Below, in pieces: positions 43,729 to 60,538 of a stretch of DNA of 64,000 bases (its first letter is position 1; each line of letters opens with the position of its first letter). The stretch covers positions 64,401 through 128,400 of the forward strand of contig JALSKD010000177.1 in assembly GCA_026989015.1 (NCBI GenBank), written 5' to 3'. The position numbers were made by a program, and so were the translations under genes. A model generated the notes under the pieces. The model worked only from the letters and a program-made list of their open reading frames with translations, was not told the DNA's origin and ran no database searches. The stretch comes from Gammaproteobacteria bacterium. GTDB taxonomy: Bacteria > Pseudomonadota > Gammaproteobacteria > GCA-001735895.

Positions 43729-46251
43729 CTACAGCCGATCGAGCAGTTCGCCTTCCCGCGGCAGCGCGCGGGGCCGCGCAATGCCGTAGCCCTGGGCAAA
43801 ATCCACACCCAGTTCCTTCAGCGCCTGCAGGATGGCATCGTCCTCGACGAACTCGGCGATGGTGCGCAGCTTGAGCACGCTGCCGATGTTGTGGATCGAT
43901 TCCACCATCGCCCGATCGATGTCGTCTTCCACCATGTCCTTGACGAAAGCGCCGTCGATCTTCAGGTAATCCACCCGCAATGACTTCAGGTAGGCGAAGG
44001 AGCTGAGCCCACTGCCGAAATCGTCCAGCGCGAAGCGGCAACCCAGCTCGCGCAGCTCGTCCATGAACAGCTGGGCCTGGGACAGGTTGCTGATGGCCGC
44101 GGTCTCCGTGATCTCGAAGCAGATGTGGTCGGCGGCGATGGCGTGCTCGTCGATGAGCTGCTTGACGCGGTAAAGCAGGCTCTCGTCGGCCAGCGACTGC
44201 CCGGACAGGTTGATCGCGAACACCGCCTCGGCACGATGATCCCAATGCGCCTCGATCCAGGTGAACAGCCGTTCGATCACCCACAGATCGATCTTCGACA
44301 TCAGCTGGTAACGCTCGGCCGAGGTGATGAAGGCTCCGGGCGGTATCAGCTCGCCGTCTTCGGAAACCATGCGGATGAGGATTTCGTAATGCAGCGGATC
44401 GCGGTCATCGGCGATCGGCACGATCGGCTGGTAGTGCAATTCGAAGCGGTCCTCGTCGAGGGCATTCTGGATGCGCACCAGCCAATGCGCCTCGCCGCGC
44501 CGCTGGGAGATCTCGACATCGTTCGGGCTGTAGATGTGCACCCGATTGCGCCCCGCGTCCTTGGCCGCGTAACAGGCCGAGTCGGCGGCCTTGAACACCT
44601 CGTCCATGTCCGGGCTGTGGGCGTCCACCATCACCAGTCCGACGCTGATGCCAACCTGGAAGGACTGATCCTGCCAGCCGAAGCGGAAATCCTCCACCGC
44701 CATGCGGATGTTCTCGGCCACATTCACCGCCGGACCCAACTCGCATTCGCTGAGGATGATCGCGAACTCGTCCCCGCCCAGCCGCGCCAGCGTATCGGCG
44801 CCTCGGATCTTGGAACGGAAGATGTCGGAAAGCTGGCGCAACAGCTCGTCACCGGCGGCATGGCCGCAGGTGTCGTTGACCACCTTGAACTTGTCCAGAT
44901 CCATGAAACACAGGCAGTGTTCGGTGCCTTCCTCGCGGGCGGTGTCGATCACCTTCTCCAGCCGCCGCTCGAACTCGCGGCGGTTGACCAGCCCGGTCAG
45001 CTCGTCGTGGGTCGCCTGCCATGAAAGCCGGTTGGCCAGACGGTGCGACTTGCTCACATCGCGCAGGATCAGCACCGCGCCTATGGTGTCACCGATCGCG
45101 TTGTGGCGCGGCGTCGCCACCTGGTGGATGACCCGCTGCTCCCCCTGCTTGTCGATGAGCACATCGCCGGATACCGAATCCACCTGCTTGCCGCTCTCGA
45201 TGCAGGCAAACACCGGCAGTTGCTTGTTGTCGGACTCGATGGTGATCACCCGGTCGATGCGCTGACCCAGCAATTCCTGCTCGTCGTAGCCGGTCAGCTT
45301 CAGGGCCGCCGGGTTGATGTAGGTGATCTGGCCGATGATGTCGGTGGTGATCACCCCATCGGCGATACAGGAAAGGGTGACCTGGGCCTGTTCCTTTTCC
45401 CGGTACAGCGCTTCCTCGAAGGCCTGGCGCTCGGTGATGTCCTTGATGGTAACGATATACTGCCGGTCCTCGCCCTTCAGAATGCTGCTCACGGCCAGTT
45501 CGGCATGGAACAGCTCACCGCCTTTCTTCAGCCCCTTGACCGTCTGCAGGTAATCCAGCGCCGCGAGACCGTCATCGGAGTGGATCATCTGCTCGACGCG
45601 CCGGTTGTGCGGCGACGGCAGCAGCATGCCCACCGGCTTGCCGAGCACCTCGTACTGATCGTAGCCGAACATCTTCTGCGCCGAGCGGTAGAAACTGCTG
45701 ATGCGCCCCATGCGGTTGAGGATGACCACCGCATCGAGGGTATTGTCGAGCACCGTCTTGAGCTGGAACTCCTGCTCGCGGGAACGGGCGACGACGGTCT
45801 CCAGCTCGAACAGGGTGCGCTTGAGAAACTGCTCGTGGCGGATTCGCTGACGGGCATCGCTGATGCGCAAAAGGCATCCGGGTTCGCCGTCCGTGTTCAC
45901 CGGCGTCACCTCGATGCTGTGCGGCAGCGGCTGTCCGCCGGCCTCATCCTGTGATGTATCGAACAGCGGCAGACTGCAGCGGTGCAGGCGCGCCGACAGC
46001 AGCGAAGACAGGCCGGAGGCCAGCGCATCCCGGATCGCCTGTTGCAGTGGCTCGCCCAGATCGGCAAACCGTTCAGCCAGCGTGTGGCCATGCACCTGGG
46101 TGTCTTGCAGCCCGCTGTGTCGTTCCATCCACCGGTTCCACAGGCGTACCCGCGCATGGCGGTCGAGCAGTACGAGGCCCATACCGACCTCGTCGAGCAG
46201 CGCATGCGGCTCGGCCCGGAGCGCTTCGACGGACGGTTCGACGGCCGGCAT
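43729..46251 (-). CDS. PAS-PAS-PAS-GGDEF-EAL signalling protein
   Basis: Three PAS modules, an intact GGDEF (RLGGDEF) and an EAL domain (YEILIRM...DDFGSGLSS). Confidence 0.85.
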   Translation of the reverse strand: MPAVEPSVEALRAEPHALLDEVGMGLVLLDRHARVRLWNRWMERHSGLQDTQVHGHTLAERFADLGEPLQQAIRDALASGLSSLLSARLHRCSLPLFDTSQDEAGGQPLPHSIEVTPVNTDGEPGCLLRISDARQRIRHEQFLKRTLFELETVVARSREQEFQLKTVLDNTLDAVVILNRMGRISSFYRSAQKMFGYDQYEVLGKPVGMLLPSPHNRRVEQMIHSDDGLAALDYLQTVKGLKKGGELFHAELAVSSILKGEDRQYIVTIKDITERQAFEEALYREKEQAQVTLSCIADGVITTDIIGQITYINPAALKLTGYDEQELLGQRIDRVITIESDNKQLPVFACIESGKQVDSVSGDVLIDKQGEQRVIHQVATPRHNAIGDTIGAVLILRDVSKSHRLANRLSWQATHDELTGLVNRREFERRLEKVIDTAREEGTEHCLCFMDLDKFKVVNDTCGHAAGDELLRQLSDIFRSKIRGADTLARLGGDEFAIILSECELGPAVNVAENIRMAVEDFRFGWQDQSFQVGISVGLVMVDAHSPDMDEVFKAADSACYAAKDAGRNRVHIYSPNDVEISQRRGEAHWLVRIQNALDEDRFELHYQPIVPIADDRDPLHYEILIRMVSEDGELIPPGAFITSAERYQLMSKIDLWVIERLFTWIEAHWDHRAEAVFAINLSGQSLADESLLYRVKQLIDEHAIAADHICFEITETAAISNLSQAQLFMDELRELGCRFALDDFGSGLSSFAYLKSLRVDYLKIDGAFVKDMVEDDIDRAMVESIHNIGSVLKLRTIAEFVEDDAILQALKELGVDFAQGYGIARPRALPREGELLDRL

Positions 46252-46853
46252 CACGATACCCTCCCATGCACGGCCGGCGTCTTGATGGCTTGCCAGGGCG
46301 CACCGCACCAGAGCAGCCAGGCGCGGTCCCCGCGGCCAGAGTGTTCGATCCGCAGTTCGGCCAGCGTGGCGAGGCTGCTGTCGGCAGGCCGTGGCAGGGC
46401 TGTGCTCAGTGCGCCCGGACGCTCCCGCCAGAGACGCGGCGGCGCAGCGCCATCGATACCCGTGGTCAACTGCCCGTGGTGTTCCAGGCAACGGTTGATG
46501 ATGCGGTTGCCGATCTCGGTCAGGGCCTCCTCCTCCATCTCGGTCAGCACCTCAAGACGGATCTCCTCACCCAGCAGATGATGCAGCAGGTCGCGGGCAT
46601 CGCCCTCGGTGCAGAACCACAGCATCGTGCCCCGCTCCGCAGGACGCAGGCTCTGCGCCACGCACAGCAGATCGTGTTCAGCGGGCAGCGTATCGAACAG
46701 GCTGTCCCAGTCGCCGTGACGGCAACCCTGCAGATGAAATCCCGCCTCGCCGGGCACCGAAGCGGACAGCAGCGCGCCCGCCTCGGACAAGGCGAGCTGT
46801 GTCACCTGCTGAAACAGATGCTCCCTGTCGGGAGTGGCGGTTGGGCTGGACAC
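46251..46853 (-). CDS. CheX/CheC-like protein (single E-x2-N-x21-P motif)
   Basis: EEALTEIGNRIINRCLEHHGQLTTGIDGAAPP fits the CheC/CheX phosphatase motif. Apparent GTG start. Its stop overlaps the start of the downstream PAS-GGDEF-EAL gene. Confidence 0.45.
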   Translation of the reverse strand: MSSPTATPDREHLFQQVTQLALSEAGALLSASVPGEAGFHLQGCRHGDWDSLFDTLPAEHDLLCVAQSLRPAERGTMLWFCTEGDARDLLHHLLGEEIRLEVLTEMEEEALTEIGNRIINRCLEHHGQLTTGIDGAAPPRLWRERPGALSTALPRPADSSLATLAELRIEHSGRGDRAWLLWCGAPWQAIKTPAVHGRVS

Positions 46854-46976
46854 CGGCTGTATGGTTCCGTCCTGGGCTTCGGAAAAGTCGGAGGCCGCGT
46901 ACAGGACGCGGTTTTCCCGAGTATAGACGGGGCTGGAGATTTTGCCCGCCCGGCGGGCGGATGCCGTTCCGGCCGA

Positions 46977-48089
46977 TCAGTCGATGGCCTTGCCCTGGGC
47001 TTCCGCCGGGAAGGCCGACTCATAGCCCCAGATATCGGTGTCGTAGCCCTGGGCGCGCAGCATCTCGCCACGGGCCGAGATGTAACGCTGGAAGCTGGGC
47101 TGGGTGTCATAGCCCTGCTCCAGCACATAGGCCAGGGAAGACTGGAAGTGGAAGGTCTTGAGGAACCCTTCGATGCGGTGGACCTCCTTGCCCGTATCAT
47201 CGAAGAACACCACCGACGGCGTGTAGGCGATACCCAGCTCGCGGGCATAGTCCCGGGCCGTCATGCGGCGGCCATCGACGGTGGTCACGGGTTCTTCGGC
47301 GTAGACATTCAGTTGCACACTGCGCATCTGCTTCGCCAGCGCGCGGGTCGGCGCATCGCTCAGCACGCGCTGATGCATGACCGCACAATCGTCACAGCCG
47401 GGCGCTTCGAAATAGACGGCCAGATAGCGGCCGTCTCCGCGAATCAGTGATTTGAGATCCCGTGTGTCGAGGAAGAAATCCTCGCCGATCAGGCTTCCGC
47501 TGCGCGGCGCTTCACTGTCGAGCATGTAGTTGGCGAAGGTGGTTTCCTTTTCCTTGCCCTCTCCGGCGAAGCGCAATGCCTTGCGCAGCTTTGCCGGCGG
47601 GTAGTAGCCATTGAGCCGCAGCACCACCCGGCCCTGCTCGTCGAGGAACAGCAGCGTGGGCGTGTATTGCACCTTCAGCGCTTCGGCAAAACTCTTCTCG
47701 GTGTAATCCCGGCCCCCAATGCTGACGATCTCGCGATCGCCCCACATGTTGAGGGCAATACCGTCGAAACGGCTTTGTACATAGTCACGGATCTTCGGAT
47801 CCTGGAAATTTTCCTCCACCAGCTTGGCGCAGTAGGGGCAACCGTTCTGGTAGAAATACAGCAATACCCGGCGTCCATTGTCGCGCGCCTCGGCCACATC
47901 CTCCTCGAAATCGAGGAAGCTCTCCTTGAACCATTCGGGAATCTCCGATTCACGGGCGCCAAGGTAGCGCCCTTCGGAAGTCTGCTGCCCCATCACGGAC
48001 GGCGGCATCAGCCCGAGCAGCAACAGGAGCAGTGCGGTCAATGTGGCGGCAGGGGAAAACGATCGGCTGGCCAGATAGCGTGTTCTCAT
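46977..48089 (-). CDS. Periplasmic double thioredoxin-fold protein (CPYC and CDDC)
   Basis: Signal peptide and two thioredoxin-like domains. ATG at 48089, with a GAGGA Shine-Dalgarno. Confidence 0.7.
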   Translation of the reverse strand: MRTRYLASRSFSPAATLTALLLLLLGLMPPSVMGQQTSEGRYLGARESEIPEWFKESFLDFEEDVAEARDNGRRVLLYFYQNGCPYCAKLVEENFQDPKIRDYVQSRFDGIALNMWGDREIVSIGGRDYTEKSFAEALKVQYTPTLLFLDEQGRVVLRLNGYYPPAKLRKALRFAGEGKEKETTFANYMLDSEAPRSGSLIGEDFFLDTRDLKSLIRGDGRYLAVYFEAPGCDDCAVMHQRVLSDAPTRALAKQMRSVQLNVYAEEPVTTVDGRRMTARDYARELGIAYTPSVVFFDDTGKEVHRIEGFLKTFHFQSSLAYVLEQGYDTQPSFQRYISARGEMLRAQGYDTDIWGYESAFPAEAQGKAID

Positions 48090-48271
48090 GGTGGTCATCC
48101 TCGGTGGCTGCTTGTTTGGACGCCTGCAGTGTCCCGGCAGTTTCATAGGCAGGATCTATGGACATCATCACTACAAACGATTTGGGAAATACCCTGCGGC
48201 CCCCATATTCTACCCGCAAGCTGAACAAAGCAACGATTCCCCCAACACTTTAATCAACGAGGTAAGACACA

Positions 48272-48919
48272 ATGGAAAACGAAACTCCGATCACCCGCAT
48301 GCCGCGGATCAACGAACCCGCACCGGCCTTCGAAGCCAAGACCACTCATGGCATCCGCAGGCTCGAGGACTACAAGGGCAAATGGCTGGTGCTGTTCTCC
48401 CATCCGGCCGATTTCACGCCGGTCTGCACCACCGAGTTCATTGCCTTTGCCAAGCGTGCCGAGGAGTTCGGCAAGCTCAATGCCGAATTGCTGGGACTGT
48501 CCATCGACAGCACCTACAGCCATCTCGCCTGGGCACGCAACATCAAGGAGAAATTCGGTCAGGATATCCCCTTCCCGATCATCGCCGATCTGGACATGAA
48601 GGTGGCCCAGGCCTACGGCATGATCCACCCCGGCGCTGCCGACACCTCCGCCGTGCGGGCGACCTTCATCATCGATCCTGAGGGCATGCTGCGTGCCATG
48701 GTCTACTACCCGATGACCAACGGCCGTTCCATCGATGAATTCCTGCGCCTGCTGGCCGCCTTGCAGACCTCGGACGAGCACGGCGTCGCCACTCCCGAAG
48801 GCTGGCAGCCCGGCGACAAGGTCATCGTTCCTCCGCCACAGGACATCGACAGCGCCGAAGCCCGCATGAACGAAGGCTATGAGTGCGTCGACTGGTACTT
48901 CTGCAAGAAGAACCTGTAA
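48272..48919 (+). CDS. Peroxiredoxin (Prx6/1-Cys type)
   Basis: FSHPADFTPVCTTEF peroxidatic Cys motif. 215 aa. Confidence 0.9.
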   Translation: MENETPITRMPRINEPAPAFEAKTTHGIRRLEDYKGKWLVLFSHPADFTPVCTTEFIAFAKRAEEFGKLNAELLGLSIDSTYSHLAWARNIKEKFGQDIPFPIIADLDMKVAQAYGMIHPGAADTSAVRATFIIDPEGMLRAMVYYPMTNGRSIDEFLRLLAALQTSDEHGVATPEGWQPGDKVIVPPPQDIDSAEARMNEGYECVDWYFCKKNL

Positions 48920-48963
48920 ACCCGATCAGTCCTCCCTATCCGACATCATGGCAGATGTCCTTC

Positions 48964-48988
48964 GGCCCGCCCCGCGGGCCGTTTTTTT
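48964..48988 (+). terminator. Rho-independent terminator after the peroxiredoxin gene
   Basis: GGCCCGC-ccc-GCGGGCC stem followed by GT7. Confidence 0.7.
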
Positions 48989-49250
48989 GCACAGGGAAGT
49001 GCTTATCCTGCGAGCGCAGGGACGCGCAGGAGCAGGGTTTGCACAGGGAGGTGCTTATGCCGCGAAGGCCAGGGAAGGCCGAGAGCGGCGCTTGCACAGG
49101 GGTGAGCCACGACCGTCTTGCCAGTGGCAAGACGCAGCGTAGGCGAACGCCCGGACAGGGTGAGTCATGACCGTTCTGCCAGTGGCAGAACGCAGCATAG
49201 ACGAACGCCCGGACAGGAAGTCCGGGCTGGATCGACAGACCAGGGAAGGT
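48989..49250 (+). repeat. Array of about 5 degenerate tandem units (period 53-61 bp), each with short GC stems whose loops are AGGGAA, AGGGAG or AGGAA
   Basis: Hairpins: GCAC-AGGGAA-GTGC at 48989-49002; CCTGCG...AGGGA...CGCAGG at 49007-49030; GCAC-AGGGAG-GTGC at 49041-49054; GGCC-AGGGAA-GGCC at 49067-49080; GCCCGGAC-AGGAA-GTCCGGGC at 49207-49227; ACC-AGGGAA-GGT at 49239-49250. Also two 9-bp hairpins with AGU loops, at 49114-49134 and 49172-49192. Confidence 0.7.
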
Positions 49251-49484
49251 TACCGACTCCGCAACCCACTGACGCCACCGCTACCGGAACAGCCCCACCA
49301 GCAAGGCCGAACCAACGCATCGTGGAACAGGCATCTAGCCACTGAAGGCGGACGCGGGTTTCGCGCCTGTTGACGGCAGCGCCCCGGTAGCCGGCGACGG
49401 TGCGGGACGCGAGTTCCTTTCTTTGCGGGTCCAAAGAAAGGAACCAAAGAAAAGACCCCCAGCCGCCCCGGCCTGCGGCTGCCC
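49106..49484 (+). repeat. Copy A of a 379-bp direct repeat
   Basis: About 97% identical to 49604-49982 (offset 498 bp). Contains two AGU-loop hairpins, GGA-loop hairpins, and a 13-bp hairpin GTTCCTTTCTTTG-cgggtc-CAAAGAAAGGAAC. Confidence 0.8.
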
Positions 49485-49603
49485 GGCCGTCAACCGCCCC
49501 GCACCGGCACGCCGCGATGCGCTCCCGGCGCAGCGCGGCTCACGCGGCGTCCTGCCGCGTGACCGGCACGGAACGGCCGCCGACCGGCGGGGCAGATGGG
49601 TTC

Positions 49604-49982
49604 GCCACGACCGTCTTGCCGGTGGCAAGACGCAGAGTGGGCGAACGCCGGGTCAGGGTGAGTCATGACCGTTCTGCCAGTGGCAGAACGCAGCATAGAC
49701 GAACGCCCGGACAGGAAGTCCGGGCTGGATCGACACACCAGGGAAGGTTACCGACTCCGCAACCCACTGACACCACCGCTACCGGAACAGCCCCACCAGC
49801 AAGGCCGAACCAACGCATCGCGGAACAGGCATCTAGCCACTGTAGGCGGACGCGGGTTTCGCGCCCGTTGACGACGGCGCCCCGGTAGCCGGCGACGGTG
49901 CGGGACGCGAGTTCCTTTCTTTGCGGGTCCAAAGAAAAGAACCAAAGAAAAGACCCCCAGCCGCCCCGGCCTGCGGCTGCCC
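49604..49982 (+). repeat. Copy B of the 379-bp direct repeat
   Basis: See copy A. The 119-bp spacer between copies and the flanks are unique. Confidence 0.8.
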
Positions 49983-49999
49983 CGTAGCGGCAAAGCCGC

Positions 50000-50863
50000 T
50001 CATGCAAACAGCGTGCGTGCCAGTTCGCGCAGGCGCTCGCCCTGGTGCTCCAGTTCCTGCTGCAACGCCGTACAGGCATCGATCTCGAGACCGATCAGCG
50101 CTCTGCGGGGGTCGGCCTCGGCGCAGTTGACCCGCGCTCGGTGCATGCCGACCTGCCGAATCGCATAGCCGACGATCCACTCCATGGGGCGGCGCTGCGC
50201 TTCCCGGTATTCGCCGGTGAGCGCCATCGCCGCTTCCAGATCCTCGGGCAGTTTCCATTTCAGCGCCAGCAGTCCACCGGCATCGGCCTGATCGAAGCCG
50301 AGCCGCTCACGCAAAGCCTGGTGCAGGCTCAGCCGATCATCCGCTTCTTTCTGCCGCTGCACGGCTTCCGCGAATTCGTCGGGAAGGCGGTCGGCAATCC
50401 ACAACACGCCCAGATTGTGCAACAGTCCGCCGGCCCGGGCCGCCGCCGGTTCCAAGCGTTCGGACAGCGGGCTGGCGGCGCAGATCCTGGCCGAGGCTTC
50501 GGCGCAGAGCAAGGCGTCGGTCCAGTAGCGCTCCGCGTCAAAGGCGGGGCAGCGGCTGGGATCGAAGGCCGCGGCCACGGCCAACGCCAGGCTGGTACTG
50601 CGCACCACCGACAGGCCCAGGCGGGCACAGGCCTGCTCTACCGAGAGGATGGTCTCCACCGGCGAGGACCAGGCCGAATTGGCCAGTGCGATGAGGCGGC
50701 CGGCGATGGTCGGGAATTGTTCGATGACAGCGGCGATCTCGCGGAAATCCAGCTGCTCGTTGCTCAGTGCCCGCAACAGCATCGGCGTGTTGGAGGGCAA
50801 AACCGGCAGGCGTCCGCTGCCCAGGCGGTCCAGCAGGGCGGGAGGTTCGATGTGGCGGCTCAT
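50000..50863 (-). CDS. HDOD-domain signalling protein
   Basis: HDOD motifs (LPVLPSNTPMLLRAL...HNLG). Last gene of the TBDR/DUF4154/hybrid-kinase operon. Confidence 0.8.
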   Translation of the reverse strand: MSRHIEPPALLDRLGSGRLPVLPSNTPMLLRALSNEQLDFREIAAVIEQFPTIAGRLIALANSAWSSPVETILSVEQACARLGLSVVRSTSLALAVAAAFDPSRCPAFDAERYWTDALLCAEASARICAASPLSERLEPAAARAGGLLHNLGVLWIADRLPDEFAEAVQRQKEADDRLSLHQALRERLGFDQADAGGLLALKWKLPEDLEAAMALTGEYREAQRRPMEWIVGYAIRQVGMHRARVNCAEADPRRALIGLEIDACTALQQELEHQGERLRELARTLFA

Positions 50864-50882
50864 GGTCGCACTCCTGTTGTTG

Positions 50883-53800
50883 TCATTGTCTGTCGTTCTC
50901 GGGAAGAAAATTCCCGCGGGCCAGTTCCGGTATCTGCTCCGGCGGCACCGGACGGCTGAAGTAATAGCCCTGGATCGTATCGCAGCCCAGTCCCTGCAGG
51001 ACCCGCAGCTGTTCGACCTCTTCCACGCCCTCGGCGACCACAGTGTGCCCGAGCGCATGGGCCACGCCCACGATGGTGCCCAGCAGCACGGCCGAATCGC
51101 GATCCTGCAGCATGTCGCGGATGAACAGGCGGTCGATCTTCAGGCAATCGACGGGCAGGTATTTCAGCGAGGCGAGGGAGCTGTATCCGGTGCCGAAGTC
51201 ATCGATGGCGAGTTTGATGCCGAGATCGCGGATGCGTTCGAAGTTGTCCGGGTTGTCGCCACTGGTCTGCACCACGCTTTCGGTGACTTCCAGTTCCAGA
51301 CGCTCGGCCGGGAACCCGGTCTGCTGCAACACCGTCTGCAGGCTTTCGACCATGTCCGGGCTTTCGAACTGCAGCGGAGAGATGTTGACCGCAATGGTGA
51401 ATCCGTCGATGCCTTCCTGCTGCCAGCGCATGCCCTGACGGCAGGCCCGGTACAGCACCTGTTCGCCCAGTTGGCCGATGACGCCGATACGCTCGGCGAT
51501 GCCGATGAATTCCGCCGGCGATATCAGGCCGCGTTGGGGGTGATTCCAGCGCACCAGCGCCTCGACGCCGCTCATGCGGCCGGTCTCCAGACTCACCTGC
51601 GGCTGATAGTGCAACTCGAGTTGGCCTTCGGCCAGTGCCTGACGCAATTCCTGCTCCATCTGCAGGCGCTTCTGCGCCTTGGCGGTCAACTCCGGCTGAT
51701 AGAAGGCATAACGGTGCTTGCCCTCTTCCTTGGCCGCGTACATGGCGCTGTCGGCCGCCTTCAGCAGACCCTGCGCATCCATGCCGTCCTCGGGGTAGTA
51801 GGCAATGCCGATACTGGCGCGCGGATGCATCTTCTGGCCGCCCAGTTCGACGGCTTCATTGAGCGTTTGCAGGGTACGCCGGGCCACATCGGCGGCGTCA
51901 TACTGGTCACCGACATTGTCGACCAGGATGCAGAATTCATCGCCGGACAGGCGGGCCACGAAATCGGTCTCGCGCAGGATCGACTGCAGGCGCGTGGCGA
52001 CGATCTTCAACAGTTCGTCACCCACATCATGGCCCAGGCTGTCATTGACATCCTTGAAGCCGTCCAGGTCCAGGTACAGCAGGGCGAAGCGCTCGTCACG
52101 CCGGTGCGCCGCACGGATCACGTCTTCAAGGTGCTTGTGGAAATAGGCACGGCTGGCCAGCCCGGTCAGCACATCGGTATAGGCGAGCTGGCGGATGCGC
52201 TGCTCCGAAGCGCGTTGTTCGGTGATGTCCTGCACCGTGCCCAACACCACGCCGCTGTCGTCCGGAGCCAGTGACAGCAGCTGGTGCACCACCCGTTCCC
52301 GGTTGCGCCCGACCCTGAGACGGTAATCGGCGGACTGAATCTCGCCGCCGCGCGCCACCTCGTGAATCTGGTTGCGGATGTATTCCTGATCCTCTGGATG
52401 AACCCTCGACAGAAAATCCTCCAGCCCGTGAATGCCCGGCGCTTCACAGCAGTCGATCATCTGTGCCAGGTGCTCCGAGGTTTCGAAGCGGTCGCTTTGG
52501 GTCTGCCAGCGCCAGTAGCCGAGGCGTGCCAGTTTCTGCACGCTGGCCAGATGCTGCTGGTTCTCGTGCAGTTCGCGGGTGGTCTGCGCCACGCGCAGCT
52601 GAAAACGCATGCGGTGCACCAGCAGTGCCGGCGAAATCGGCTTGACGATGAAGCTGGAGGCGCCGGATTCAAAGGCCCGGTCCACCGATTCGATGTCGTC
52701 CAGGCCGGTGACCATCATCACCGGCAAAATCGGCCAGCGCGCATCGCGGCGGATCGCGCGGCAGGTTTCGAAACCGTCCTTGCCCGGCATCAGGGCATCG
52801 AGGATCACCAGATCGGGGGTCGATTCCTCCATCCGTTGCAGCGCCCGGTCGCCGCTGTCCGCCTCGATCACCCGCATGCCCTGGCTTTCCAGCAGCTCAC
52901 GGATCATGCCGCGGAAGGCGTTGTCGTCATCGACCAGAAGGATCCGTGGCGCGGTGTCATCGGCCGCCGGGGAGACGGTGGCCCCGCCCTTGCGGTTGAC
53001 CGTGTCCGGCAGCCAGTCGCTGCGCAAGCGCTGCTGCAGATCCGGCCAGCCTTCGTGTAAAGCCTTCAGCAGTGCATCCAGCCCGTCGAGCTGGCCAAGA
53101 CGGGCCTGATGTTCCAGCTCCCGGCAGCGCTCGGAGAAGGCCTTGAGGCCCAGGTTGGCGGAAGCGGATTTGAGGCCGTGGGCCAGCTGCCTCAGGCCAT
53201 CGGCATCGGCATCGCTCAGTGCCTGTTCCATGCGGGCCAGTGTCTCGGGGGTCTCGTCGAGGAAATGCCCCAGCGCCTTGCCGAGTATGTCTCGACCGGT
53301 ATCTTCCGAAAGCTGCCTGAGATCCAGCAGCGTGCCTTCGTCGATATCGGACACCGCGTCCGCGACCTCCGCGCTCGGGCTTGCGGCTTCCTCATCCGTG
53401 AGCCAGTGGCGCAAGCGGTCCTCAAGGGCCTGGCGCGAAAAGGGCTTGCTCAGGTAATCGTCCATGCCGGCCTCGGCGCACTGTTCCTGGATGCCCTTTT
53501 GCACATCGGCGGTGAGGGCGATCACCGGAACCCGCGCACGCTTCGATGCCTGTTCATCGGCACGGATCTTCCGCGTGGCCTCGAATCCGTCCATGCGCGG
53601 CATGTGGCAATCCATCAGGATCAGGTCGTAATCGCCCTGTTGCGCCCGTTCGACGGCTTCGATACCGTCGATCGCGACATCCACCTCAACACCGATCTGC
53701 ATCAGCATGCCGATGGCGACTTCCTGGTTGACCGGGTTGTCCTCGGCCAGCAGCACCCGTCCACCGAGTGCCTCTACCGTGTCCCGCCGCGTAGCCGAAC

Positions 53801-55760
53801 CCGGCGTAGCGGCCGGCTCGCCCATCAGATCGCAGAGGGCTTCATGCAGCTGCTTCTGCCGCACCGGTTTCTGCAGGTAGTCGGCAACGCCCTGTTCGCG
53901 CGCCTTGCGGCTGTCCATATCCAGCTGCGTGGAGCTGAGCATGACCACCCGCGGTTGACTGAGTCCGGATTCGCGCCGGATAGCTGCCACCAGCTCCAGC
54001 CCGTCCATGTCCGGCATGTGCAGGTCGGACAGAACCAGCTCGAAGGGATCGCCGTCGGCATCGGCCTCGCGCAGGCGTTCCAGTGCCTTGAGGGCACTGT
54101 CGACGCTTTCCGGACGCATCCCCCAACTGCGCGCATGGTCTCCGAAGATCTGACGGTTGACCGGGTGATCATCGACGATCAGCACGCGCACAGAGTCGAG
54201 CAATTGCGGACAGCGGTTGGCGCCCTGGCGGGTTTCCGCCGTACCCAGCAGCAGCTCGAAGGCGAAACAGGCGCCCTCGCCCGGCCTGCTGTCGAGCCGG
54301 ATCTGCCCGCCCATCAGCCTTACCAGGCGCTGGGCGATGGCGAGGCCGAGGCCGGTACCCCCGAAGCGGCGGGTGGTGGAGCCGTCGGCCTGGCTGAAGG
54401 CCTCGAAGATGCGCTGCTGCTTGTCGGGGTCGATACCGATGCCGGTATCACAGACCTCGAAACCGATCCGCACCCGTTCGCCGCTGTCCTCGAGCAGCCG
54501 AGCCGATAGCCGCACCTCGCCCTTGGCAGTGAACTTGACCGCGTTGCTGAGCAGATTGGACAGCACCTGACGCAGGCGGGTGGCGTCACCCCTTACCGTT
54601 TGCGGCAGATTGGCGGGCAGATCGGCCAGGGTCTCCAGTCCCTTGCGCATGGCCTGCCCGGCAAACAGTTCCAGGGTATCCTCGAGCAGGTCGCGCAGAT
54701 CGAAGGGGCGTTCCTCCAGTTCCAGCTTGCCGGCCTCGATCTTGGAAAAATCGAGAATGTCGTTGATGATTTCAAGCAGCGACTCGGCACTGCGGTGGGC
54801 AGTCAGCGCCAGGCGGTGGGCACGCACATCGAGACCGGCATCGAGCAACAATTCGGTCATCCCCAGCACGCCGTTCATCGGCGTGCGGATCTCGTGGCTC
54901 ATGGTGGCGAGGAATTCGCTCTTGGCACGGCTGGCCTGTTCGGCCTCCACCTTTGCCGCCATGAGACAGGCGGTGCGTTCCGATACCTTGTGTTCCAGGT
55001 TCTGACGATAGGACTCCAGTCGCCGGTCCCGTTCCTCGAGCTGCTCCAGCATCTCGTTGAAGCGGGCGGTCAGCAGGCCGATCTCGTCTTCCCCACCACT
55101 GGGCAGGCGCAGGCGATAGTCCTGCTCTTCGGCCACCTTCTCCATGCCCTTGACCAGATTCTCGACCGGCCCCGAGATGCTGCGCTGCAAACGCGAGGAC
55201 AGCCACCAGGCGCCGAGCATGAGGGTGCCGAACAGGGCCAGAATGAACAGAATCTGCTGGCCGATCTTGCGGTACAGCGGTTCCAGCGAGGCTTCGACGA
55301 ACAGGTAGCCGATCAGCCGTTGCTTGTGGTGCACCGGCACCGCCAGATCGTAATCATCGTCGTCATAACGCCGGGCGGCCACGCCCTGCTCGCGGACACG
55401 GTCGAGCAGTTGGCGGTCCTGGGCTTCCAGCATCTCGCCCGACCCCTCACGATGGTATTGGGCCAGCGGTTGACCGTCGGGGCGAAGCAGCCAGGCCATG
55501 CGCACATCCCGTTCCTGCCGCAGTGACTCCAGCAACTGTCGAGCAGTGACCGCATCCTCAAAGCTGAGCGCCGCGGTGGCATTGGTGGCGATGATGTGGG
55601 CAAGCGAGGTGAGGCGGTTTTCGAGGGCATTGCGGTAGCCCTGGACTTCCATCACCACGAACAGGGCCGAAGCGGCGATCAGGGCCACACCGGTCACCGT
55701 CAGGATCAGCCGTCGCAGACGACGCGACAGGCCGCCGTTTTTTTGTGCGTTGCGACTCAT
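50883..55760 (-). CDS. 1624-aa hybrid sensor kinase: TM / periplasmic YfiN-like sensor / HAMP-HisKA-HATPase / REC-REC-Hpt / REC-PAS-GGDEF(SGDEF)-EAL
   Basis: His[12 protein letters not shown]. HATPase LSNAVKFT...GGTGLGLAI. Three REC domains with conserved Asp. Hpt [16 protein letters not shown]-like domain reading RLSGDEF. EAL domain (EALVRW...[10 protein letters not shown]...KIDR). Confidence 0.9.
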
Positions 55761-60461: not shown

Positions 60462-60538
60462 TGGCGCGCTGGGGAGGATTCGAACCCCCGACCCCTTGGT
60501 TCGTAGCCAAGTACTCTATCCAACTGAGCTACCAGCGC
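60462..60538 (-). tRNA. tRNA-Arg (anticodon ACG)
   Basis: 77-nt cloverleaf folded by hand: acceptor stem GCGCUGG/CCAGCGC, D arm, anticodon loop CUACGAA, T arm GGGGG-UUCGAAU-CCUCC, discriminator G, and an encoded CCA. Confidence 0.9.

Follow-up and report, generated by a model that had tools for sequence, protein, structure and literature searches.

A recently duplicated mosaic of structured repeats between a peroxiredoxin gene and an HDOD gene combines a putative CsrA-type hairpin array with an opposite-strand candidate triple-helix pseudoknot

The window analyzed here, that is, the whole 64,000-nt stretch of contig JALSKD010000177.1 (assembly GCA_026989015.1), derives from an uncultured gammaproteobacterium whose HDOD-domain protein has its nearest named relatives in tubeworm endosymbionts. 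The HDOD gene is separated from a 1-Cys peroxiredoxin gene (48272-48919, plus strand, identified with Pfam) by a 1,080-bp gene-free spacer (48920-49999), which is filled by a mosaic of structured repeat-family modules resembling the bacterial interspersed mosaic elements (BIMEs) of enterobacteria. Within this mosaic, a 379-bp unit has recently been duplicated in tandem. Each copy carries a plus-strand array of GGA hairpins of the type predicted to bind CsrA/RsmA proteins and, on the minus strand, a pseudoknot that may form a triple helix. We cautiously favor, over the other explanations considered below, the view that these elements would titrate CsrA and cap RNA 3' ends, respectively.

Repeat search, blastn and column-by-column comparison revealed that the two copies of the unit lie head-to-tail with an offset of 498 bp, as the original prediction on this DNA had stated, and that their alignment needs no gaps. 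The copies differ by 13 substitutions (about 10 had been counted before) and no indels, which corresponds to 96.6% identity and rules out a chance origin of the match (blastn E = 0). Identity falls sharply at both unit edges, and upstream only a weak likeness is evident between 49070-49105 and 49567-49603. The stretch between the copies has ~72-73% GC and occurs once in the window, and none of the unit elements was found elsewhere in the 64 kb. Tandem Repeats Finder (TRF) further uncovered a 58-bp tandem repeat inside each copy and a 52-bp one just 5' of the unit. The tandem duplication, with its period of 498 bp, is recent, as had been proposed. All hairpins listed previously are present: a first one (CGTCTTGCC-AGT-GGCAAGACG, with a GGT loop in copy 2), a second one (CGTTCTGCC-AGT-GGCAGAACG), a GGA-loop hairpin (CCCGGAC-AGGAA-GTCCGGG), and a 13-bp hairpin (GTTCCTTTCTTTG-CGGGTC-CAAAGAAAGGAAC) followed by CAAAGAAAAG. 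The only stem substitution of copy 2 in the 13-bp hairpin (49440 G / 49938 A) yields an A.C mismatch on the plus strand and a U.G wobble on the minus strand. Small open reading frames (ORFs) were rejected as genes by inspection, since all those of at least 30 aa in the spacer are R/P/G/A-rich and off-frame; their composition supports the earlier view that they are frame artefacts.

Reading along the plus strand, the first half of the interval comprises the peroxiredoxin terminator, two modules that we call A (A1, A2), two modules that we call M (M1, M2), GGA hairpins, a linker, and a full minus-strand element made up of tail, pseudoknot 1, GC hairpin and a domain similar to the TwoAYGGAY RNA motif. 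The second half repeats M1, M2, GGA hairpins and linker, followed by a truncated minus-strand element (tail, pseudoknot 2, GC hairpin) and the HDOD gene. The 379-bp unit is thus not one gene: it combines structured repeats of two types, which occupy opposite strands. Taken together, the two strands of the interval contribute at least three families of repeat modules to the mosaic. The original suggestion of a small RNA (sRNA) gene holds insofar as the 5' third of each copy carries Csr/Rsm-type GGA hairpins on the plus strand, in a modular arrangement shared with relatives; the unit is, however, no lone sRNA gene closed by a terminator.

The 13-bp hairpin and the AAAGAAAAG downstream of it might be taken for the end of an sRNA. 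However, a terminator reading was rejected because no U-tract exists on the plus strand; this sequence, reverse-complemented, corresponds to a conserved H-type pseudoknot of ~55 nt that is formed by the minus strand. On that strand, the preceding GC hairpin plus GGGGUCUUUUCUUU alone looks weakly terminator-like. The architecture of the family can be written as X - UUUCUUUGG - U-NAC-UUUCUUU(G) - X' - nn - (C)AAAGAAAG-UNAC - GC hairpin, where X' is the 5' part of the hairpin loop and pairs with X in at least 14 compensatory versions. A fixed-register test of this pairing (stem 1) on a mixed alignment gave a weak result, because two subfamilies lie one column apart, and was thus redone on a gap-free subset of 64 sequences. 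In this alignment, all five pairs of stem 1 show changes on both sides, with a covariation score of 0.251 versus 0.091 in shuffles (none of 500 reaches it) and at most 0.079 with slid partners. Stem 2 is paired in 99.7% of cases and has three covarying pairs; one of its positions holds a wobble pair (G.U or U.G) in 57 of 123 instances, which settles that the structured strand is the TTTCTTTGG strand, the minus strand of the window. The structured tail 3' of the pseudoknot, with its GC-rich hairpins, is also conserved in three of the contigs collected for comparison (L003, L138 and L044).

In an H-type pseudoknot, the major groove of stem 2 accommodates loop 1, which is parallel to the 3' strand of this stem. 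Here the 3' strand is the purine strand, and the loop UUUCUUU fits AAAGAAA by the parallel Hoogsteen rule. As UUUCUUU is its own mirror image, only variants can tell a triplex from a direct repeat. In every variant loop/stem class (TTTTCTTT/AAAAGAAA, TTTCTTTT/AAAGAAAA, TTCTTTT/AAGAAAA, TTTTTCTTT/AAAAAGAAA and CTTTTTCTTT/GAAAAAGAAA) the loop mirrors the pyrimidine strand of the stem at a fixed 4-nt offset. Among 125 distinct instances, 39 obey the mirror rule only and none the direct rule only; 58 are self-mirror and uninformative, and 28 follow neither, most of these showing one additional T on the 5' side, which can be assigned to helix X. This comparison points to three-way covariation for 7-10 consecutive U.A-U / C+.G-C triples, and in the window copies the UUUCUUU loop could occupy the major groove of the UUUCUUU/AAAGAAA stem with seven such triples. 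Two other readings of the tracts were discarded: that of a direct repeat serving as protein-binding iterons, because variants follow the mirror and never the direct rule, and that of an alternative hairpin acting as a switch, because class TTCTTTT/CTTTTCTT would give 5 nt of Watson-Crick pairing versus 7/7 Hoogsteen matches. In a relative with a 91% HDOD match (L002:5865-5915), loop 1 is UUUCUCU and the 5' strand of the stem is CCUCUCUU, in place of UUUCUUU and CCUUUCUUU; this concerted change is compatible with the triplex rule, and the contig ends before the purine strand.

A U-rich loop 1 parallel to the purine strand of stem 2, with consecutive U.A-U triples possible, is also a trait of the SAM-II/SAM-V and preQ1-II riboswitches and of telomerase RNA. 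The likeness to ENE/MALAT1, with a triple helix near the 3' region of the RNA, suggests decay protection. Unlike all these RNAs, to which it has no sequence or Rfam match, the pseudoknot is a dispersed, multi-copy intergenic repeat rather than a single-copy 5' leader, has no evident ligand or gene association, and its purine strand is internal instead of a 3' A-rich tail. The resemblance is a comparative one, drawn from sequences alone.

The distribution of the pseudoknot was explored after a 230-bp stretch homologous to 49343-49600 was found in L003 in the opposite orientation and at another position of the spacer, which prompted a degenerate pattern search with the minus-strand reading of the hairpin. 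This search returned at least 120 genome loci from several phyla, among those listed Caballeronia, Polaromonas, Acidovorax, Thiobacillus, Xanthomonas, Lysobacter, Halothiobacillaceae, Desulfuromonadales, Chitinophagaceae, Selenomonadales and one bacterium of the candidate phyla radiation. Four Paraburkholderia replicons of ~2-2.5 Mb each hold at least 40 pseudoknot places per replicon; the 64-kb window has two copies, both within the duplication. Gene calls in the fetched loci are crude. With this limit, 124 of 142 instances in genomes other than that of the source organism are intergenic, the downstream gene is usually close (median ~110 nt) and convergent, and 400-500 nt of non-coding DNA usually lie upstream. 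The conserved unit of Burkholderiales spans ~110 nt, and divergent inverted pairs 420-520 bp apart are frequent in this order and also occur in Comamonadaceae. In Caballeronia and Acidovorax (L017:6145-6745 and L067:290-860), pseudoknot units cap imperfect palindromes of 600-800 bp whose two arms are alike and whose interior differs by locus. E. coli yielded no match, Rfam has no family for the pseudoknot, and a literature search by sequence strings and topic retrieved no description of it. Two possible origins were rejected, that is, an autonomous transposon, because no neighboring protein recurs, and a phage, because only 11 matches were found in IMG/VR, the element being rare in viral contigs. 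The pseudoknot therefore apparently belongs to a widespread, undescribed bacterial repeat family with a predicted triple helix.

Known RNA models overlap or adjoin this element in other genomes. The model of RF02421 (Bp1_Cand684_SIPHT) starts in the purine arm of the stem of a Caballeronia/Burkholderia pseudoknot copy and runs on through the following GC hairpin on the same strand. It differs from the pseudoknot in covering just the 3' arm and lineage-specific downstream sequence; loop, 5' arm and pseudoknot helix lie outside the model, which has no match in the window. The Bp1_Cand684 sRNA candidate was reported as positive by reverse transcription PCR (RT-PCR) in B. pseudomallei (PMC3521395). 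Similarly, in L044 the TwoAYGGAY RNA motif (Rfam RF01731; Weinberg et al. 2010, PMC2864571) scores above the Rfam threshold directly 5' of the same pseudoknot, twice (46.2 and 45.1 bits), and the model match stops before the pseudoknot.

The 119-bp stretch between the two copies, described earlier as a unique GC-rich spacer, is indeed GC-rich and unique in the window, but it is not filler: it is part of the minus-strand element and is conserved with L138 (86.6%) and L003 (~78%). Its minus strand folds into a long basal stem with two GGA-loop hairpins (z = -3.9). Like TwoAYGGAY, it thus has two such hairpins on a common stem; unlike it, the loops are CAGGAC and CCGGGAG instead of AYGGAY, and no Rfam score is obtained at E <= 10. 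AYGGAY-loop hairpins abut the pseudoknot in Selenomonas loci, and loop-GGA hairpins within 210 nt upstream are enriched on the pseudoknot strand (mean 1.11 versus 0.43 in 115 non-independent instances, with more on this strand in 59 and fewer in 21). The former spacer is therefore the 5' domain of the upstream (copy 1) pseudoknot element.

On the opposite strand, the GGA-hairpin modules begin at the T-run of the peroxiredoxin terminator, and the junction of terminator and TTTGCACAGGGA is kept in L005 and L142. Just 5' of this terminator, a hairpin GACATC-ATGGCA-GATGTC (48938-48961) is retained in all relatives (L003, L005, L008 and L010); in the latter, the peroxiredoxin gene is lost and the hairpin and terminator remain, which hints at a role of their own for this piece. 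Each A module reads TTTGCAC-AGGGAA-GTGC ... GGCC-AGGGAA-GGCC and so displays two Csr/Rsm-type GGA hairpins. Homologues were found in L003, L142 and L005; the single L005 module, directly 3' of the peroxiredoxin terminator, reads TTTGCAC-AAGGAT-GTGC ... GGCC-AAGGAT-GGCC, and its hairpins GCACAAGGATGTGC and GGCCAAGGATGGCC fit perfectly the high-affinity CsrA consensus derived by systematic evolution of ligands by exponential enrichment (SELEX). M modules follow the consensus GGGTGAG-a-GACCG-[7-9 bp hairpin, RGU loop]-CGCAG-a'-GCGAACG, a pattern that occurs in the window only at 49111-49148, 49169-49206, 49609-49646 and 49667-49704. They contain the AGU-loop hairpins and are followed by the GGA-loop hairpins, also conserved in L138, L142, L140, L136 and L141. 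Over the 275 nt between 48986 and 49260, GGA occurs 10 times on the plus strand versus three on the minus strand, and the minimum-free-energy fold of the plus strand places GGA in loops AGGGAC, AGGGAA and AGGAA (z = -6.6 versus shuffles); in L005 and L142, the loops of the homologous modules read AAGGAU.

When metagenomes were scanned with the M hairpin, seven contigs (L136-L142) were returned. Among them, the hairpin and its outer helix show compensatory changes (TTCTGCC/GGCAGAA, GAATGTCC/GGACATTC, GAAGGTCC/GGACCTTC and GTGCGG/CCGCAC). In L142, two A modules precede three 127-nt repeats of M plus GGA hairpins, and the array is located after the terminator of an unrelated SoxA-like gene; indeed, contigs sharing repeat modules encode sulfur-oxidation proteins such as SoxA. 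In L137 (rc 300-600), an M module with GGA and AYGGAY-like hairpins directly follows the stop codon of EF-G (fusA), flanked by GTGACTTAACGTCAC palindromes, and may sit within a highly expressed operon. In L140 (126-344), two stretches of tRNA-Met sequence, the complete gene and a 32-nt duplicate of its 5' half, enclose one M module with GGA hairpins; insertion of the module into the tRNA gene, or recombination at this gene, would be expected to leave such an arrangement. In L141:1-1030, a truncated IS91-type (Y2_Tnp) transposase fragment is surrounded by four M modules of both orientations, one of them overlapping the end of the transposase reading frame. A and M are portable modules with predicted CsrA-type sites, which in the window form a putative modular, CsrB/RsmZ-like GGA-hairpin array.

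As in the CsrB/RsmZ/RsmY/RsmX sRNAs (Rfam clan CL00106), the array has many GGA in short hairpin loops on one strand, is modular and repeated, has apparently grown by tandem duplication (periods of 52, 58, 127 and 498 bp in the window and L142), and has relatives whose modules carry perfect A(N)GGAUG hairpins. Unlike in that clan, modules start at the terminator of another gene and occur at several unrelated loci, and nothing in the known Csr/Rsm RNAs corresponds to the M core (GGGTGAG...GACCG-hairpin-CGCAG...GCGAACG).

Comparison with other contigs, the syntenic ones obtained via HDOD homologues, evidenced dispersal and variable presence of the modules among relatives. The pseudoknot element is missing at the syntenic locus of L005 and L008, and the L008 spacer has the peroxiredoxin terminator only. 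In contrast, the element directly follows the HDOD gene in L002, as in the window. L138, from the same metagenome as the 91% relative L002, contains a full element followed by an M block, collinear with window positions 49285-49805 (86.6% identity over 522 bp). This block lies between the start of a redoxin gene and a three-repeat array resembling clustered regularly interspaced short palindromic repeats (CRISPR), beyond which SH3, CsiV and Mfd genes are found. Its presence at another locus implies that the 498-bp period was a pre-existing composite, and its collinearity that the junction of copy 1, spacer and copy 2 is real. The adjoining CRISPR-like mini-array (L138:746-920) holds three repeats of GTCTTAATCCCTTTTTCATCAGGGGTGGGTTCGAAAC, two of them perfect and one degenerate, and its spacers measure 34 nt; this 3.6-kb contig contains no cas genes, and the repeat is not in the window. 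Inside the block homologue (L138:600-748), a 77-bp tandem duplication of GGATCGAC..ACCAGGGA.GGTTACC..CTGACACCACCG.TACC represents another local duplication in the same repeat family.

Table 1. Features of the peroxiredoxin-HDOD interval, in window coordinates
Feature	Position	Strand	Evidence or remark
Intrinsic terminator of the 1-Cys peroxiredoxin gene	48963-48988	+	Terminator scan, Pfam, conserved junction
Two 52-nt A modules	48986-49093	+	Tandem repeat 48987-49101, period 52
Two 58-nt M modules, copy 1	49100-49217	+	TRF period 58
Duplicated unit, copy 1	49106-49484	none assigned	Repeat search, blastn
GGA-loop hairpin CCCGGAC-AGGAA-GTCCGGG	49208-49226 (copy 2 at +498)	+	Sequence, fold
GGA-loop hairpin ACC-AGGGAA-GGT	49239-49250 (copy 2 at +498)	+	Sequence, fold
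C/A-rich, T-poor linker	49251-49342	+	AT skew 0.38-0.40; common to L138
Structured tail 3' of pseudoknot 1, GC-rich hairpins	49343-49412; copy 2 49841-49910	-	
Candidate triple-helix pseudoknot, copy 1	49413-49458	-	Pattern matches, covariation
Pseudoknot 1, stem 1	5' GGGTC 49458-49454; 3' GACCC 49431-49427	-	
Pseudoknot 1, loop 1 UUUCUUU	49452-49446	-	
Pseudoknot 1, stem 2	5' strand 49444-49432; 3' strand 49425-49413	-	
GC-rich hairpin CAGCCGC-AGGCCGGG-GCGGCTG, just 5' of pseudoknot	49460-49481; copy 2 49958-49979	-	
TwoAYGGAY-like domain (119-bp 'spacer')	49485-49603	-	Fold, conservation
Spacer GGA hairpin 2 TGCGC-CGGGA-GCGCA	49532-49518	-	
Spacer GGA hairpin 1 CACGCGGC-AGGAC-GCCGCGTG	49561-49541	-	
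Two 58-nt M modules, copy 2	49598-49715	+	Same pair as copy 1
Duplicated unit, copy 2	49604-49982	none assigned	13 substitutions vs copy 1
Candidate triple-helix pseudoknot, copy 2	49911-49956	-	Starts 43 nt after HDOD stop, HDOD strand
HDOD-domain gene	50000-50863	-	Flanking context, outside duplication

Our preferred explanation, which we hold with moderate confidence, is that the interval is a BIME-like mosaic with a recent duplication, in which a CsrA-type array on the plus strand and a triple-helix pseudoknot on the minus strand would act in CsrA titration and as an RNA 3' structural cap. The plus-strand transcript would titrate a CsrA/RsmA-type protein, and the duplication would add ~3 binding hairpins; internal duplications are indeed known to enlarge CsrB-type RNAs. 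The minus-strand pseudoknot would act as a compact, nuclease-resistant 3' RNA module, with copy 2 serving the HDOD mRNA, 43 nt beyond its stop codon, and copy 1 a small GGA-hairpin RNA. The modules may have spread among loci as non-autonomous repeats, and unequal recombination between them may have generated the duplication. More tentatively still, the 13-bp hairpin could stand for a cross-phylum, multi-copy RNA family hitherto undescribed, an H-type pseudoknot with 7-10 consecutive major-groove triples often placed after GGA-hairpin (TwoAYGGAY/Csr-like) domains. It might then parallel, in bacteria, the triple-helix stability elements of eukaryotes and viruses, and link dispersed repeats to CsrA-type post-transcriptional control.

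Several observations weigh against this explanation. The RNAs of both strands are predictions, and the folded minus strand could in principle be DNA, because single-stranded DNA, too, can form triplexes and wobble pairs. In contrast to the CsrB/RsmZ clan, the window shows no Rfam match, GacA/UvrY box, recognizable promoter or 3' terminator for the array. Specifically, no sigma-70-like promoter was detected in 48800-50100, nor a sigma-54 one by eye; no GacA box (TGTAAG-N6-CTTACA, up to three mismatches) was found near the plus-strand RNA region; and no plus-strand intrinsic terminator follows the GGA modules, the sole one being that of peroxiredoxin. The best Csr/Rsm covariance model was RsmW, at 15.4 bits and E = 8.5 versus a gathering score of 52. 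Rfam scans of the interval (gathering level and E <= 10) returned only sub-threshold M23, SorX, miRNA and RsmW hits, which we judged to be due to chance. No csrA-like ORF is present in the 64-kb window, the part of the genome covered. On the minus strand, no U-tract follows the pseudoknot, and many copies in other genomes lack a co-oriented upstream gene, as far as the crude gene calls tell, so a role in 3' untranslated regions cannot be general. Besides, the instances were gathered by sequence pattern, which overstates conservation, under-samples variants and renders the apparent extreme conservation partly circular, and they are phylogenetically related, so that their counts are not independent events.

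The main rival, which we regard as rather unlikely but the strongest of the alternatives, is a selfish or neutral build-up of non-autonomous mobile repeats in the spacer, comparable to miniature inverted-repeat transposable elements (MITEs), repetitive extragenic palindromic (REP) sequences or BIMEs. The duplication would then be a neutral by-product of recombination, and the folds would serve only the propagation of the elements, with no part in host regulation. The original prediction had named many genome-wide occurrences of the unit as a refutation of its own reading, and this applies in part: parts of the unit do belong to dispersed families, with the pseudoknot at no fewer than 120 loci across phyla, in high copy number in Paraburkholderia and often in inverted pairs, and the whole block at a second locus in L138. 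The M modules occur in such unrelated contexts as after fusA, beside a tRNA gene and around a truncated IS91-type transposase gene. In line with this rival, locus content varies widely among syntenic relatives, with spacers of 104 bp in L008, 256 bp in L005, 691 bp in L003 and 1,080 bp in the window, and the short-read contigs L001 (same protein) and L002 end inside the element, right after the HDOD gene. Like REP/BIME, the modules are short, structured, multi-copy and intergenic (REP/BIME often lie between convergent genes or in operons), and their mosaic clusters combine several types of motif, which alternate in orientation and are in part duplicated locally in tandem; an RNA role as a 3' barrier has been proposed for REP/BIME. 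Unlike them, they have unrelated sequence, a predicted triple-helix pseudoknot instead of an imperfect palindrome, and a cross-phylum spread. MITE features were not evident either, as the repeat search found no inverted repeats at the unit ends and no target duplications were seen around the unit. Across 120 loci, no recurrent protein family, transposases included, was found within 2.5 kb of the pseudoknot, in an inspection that included no search by the name of REP-associated tyrosine transposases (RAYTs); these enzymes act in trans. Against purely selfish repeats, the GGA hairpins fit the CsrA consensus far above chance and GGA stays in loops across relatives, and strand-specific wobbles together with three-way covariation argue for selection on a folded single strand, with which a structure aiding transposition would also be compatible.

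It is improbable that each copy is an independent plus-strand sRNA gene with the 13-bp hairpin as its 3' end. Tandem paralogous Rsm RNAs do exist in pseudomonads, the original prediction having drawn the parallel with rsmX, and each copy opens with GGA-bearing plus-strand modules. However, neither copy is preceded by a promoter-like site, the hairpin lacks the plus-strand U-tract, and the wobbles of its family are A.C mismatches on that strand. Moreover, the hairpin element is inverted with respect to the GGA modules in L003, and L142 and L005 have GGA modules without it, indicating that the two are separable.

Slightly less probable is that the pseudoknot works as single-stranded DNA in an H-DNA-like triplex fold, possibly as a recombination, transposition or replication signal; the block would then be moved or duplicated through this role. 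H-DNA is classically recognized by mirror-repeat polypyrimidine tracts, T.A-T / C+.G-C triplexes and G.T wobbles form in DNA too, and the element is dispersed across phyla in both orientations and in inverted pairs. Nonetheless, no Y1/HUH or other transposase is linked to it, a Burkholderia copy overlaps the RT-PCR-positive candidate Bp1_Cand684 (RF02421; PMC3521395), and in L044 it stands directly 3' of the curated TwoAYGGAY RNA motif on the same strand. Finally, a single copy assembled twice, an artefact that the original prediction had kept in mind and that the breaks of short-read assemblies of the source organism and its 91% relative at the element could suggest, is very unlikely given the 13 differences, the distinct flanks and the independent contig L138 that spans the 3' part of the unit, the spacer and the 5' part of the unit.

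The surroundings of the interval (43729-55760) relate to cyclic di-GMP signaling, with a PAS-GGDEF-EAL gene (43729-46491, minus strand), the HDOD gene and, beyond it, a CHASE8-histidine kinase-receiver-GGDEF-EAL gene encoding 1,625 aa; these genes and their order are kept in relatives, and the spacer between them varies. A tRNA gene (60465-60538, minus strand) is the sole Rfam match at gathering level in the window.

Collectively, the duplication itself is ordinary and the copied content is unusual. Comparison gives an unusually clear signature of a long major-groove triple helix, with three-way covariation at 39 to 0, and this signature comes from a small element with many copies in Burkholderiales, Xanthomonadales, sulfur oxidizers, Chitinophagaceae, Selenomonadales and others, which is not in Rfam. 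Short-read assemblies break at this locus because of its repeat elements. Should the pseudoknot act as RNA, bacteria would possess a widespread triple-helix element beyond the riboswitches and, with it, a ready-made test case for triplex-mediated RNA stabilization or termination in bacteria. Likewise, predicted CsrA-type binding hairpins that behave as portable modules and multiply by tandem duplication may bear on how Csr/Rsm sponge RNAs originate and grow.

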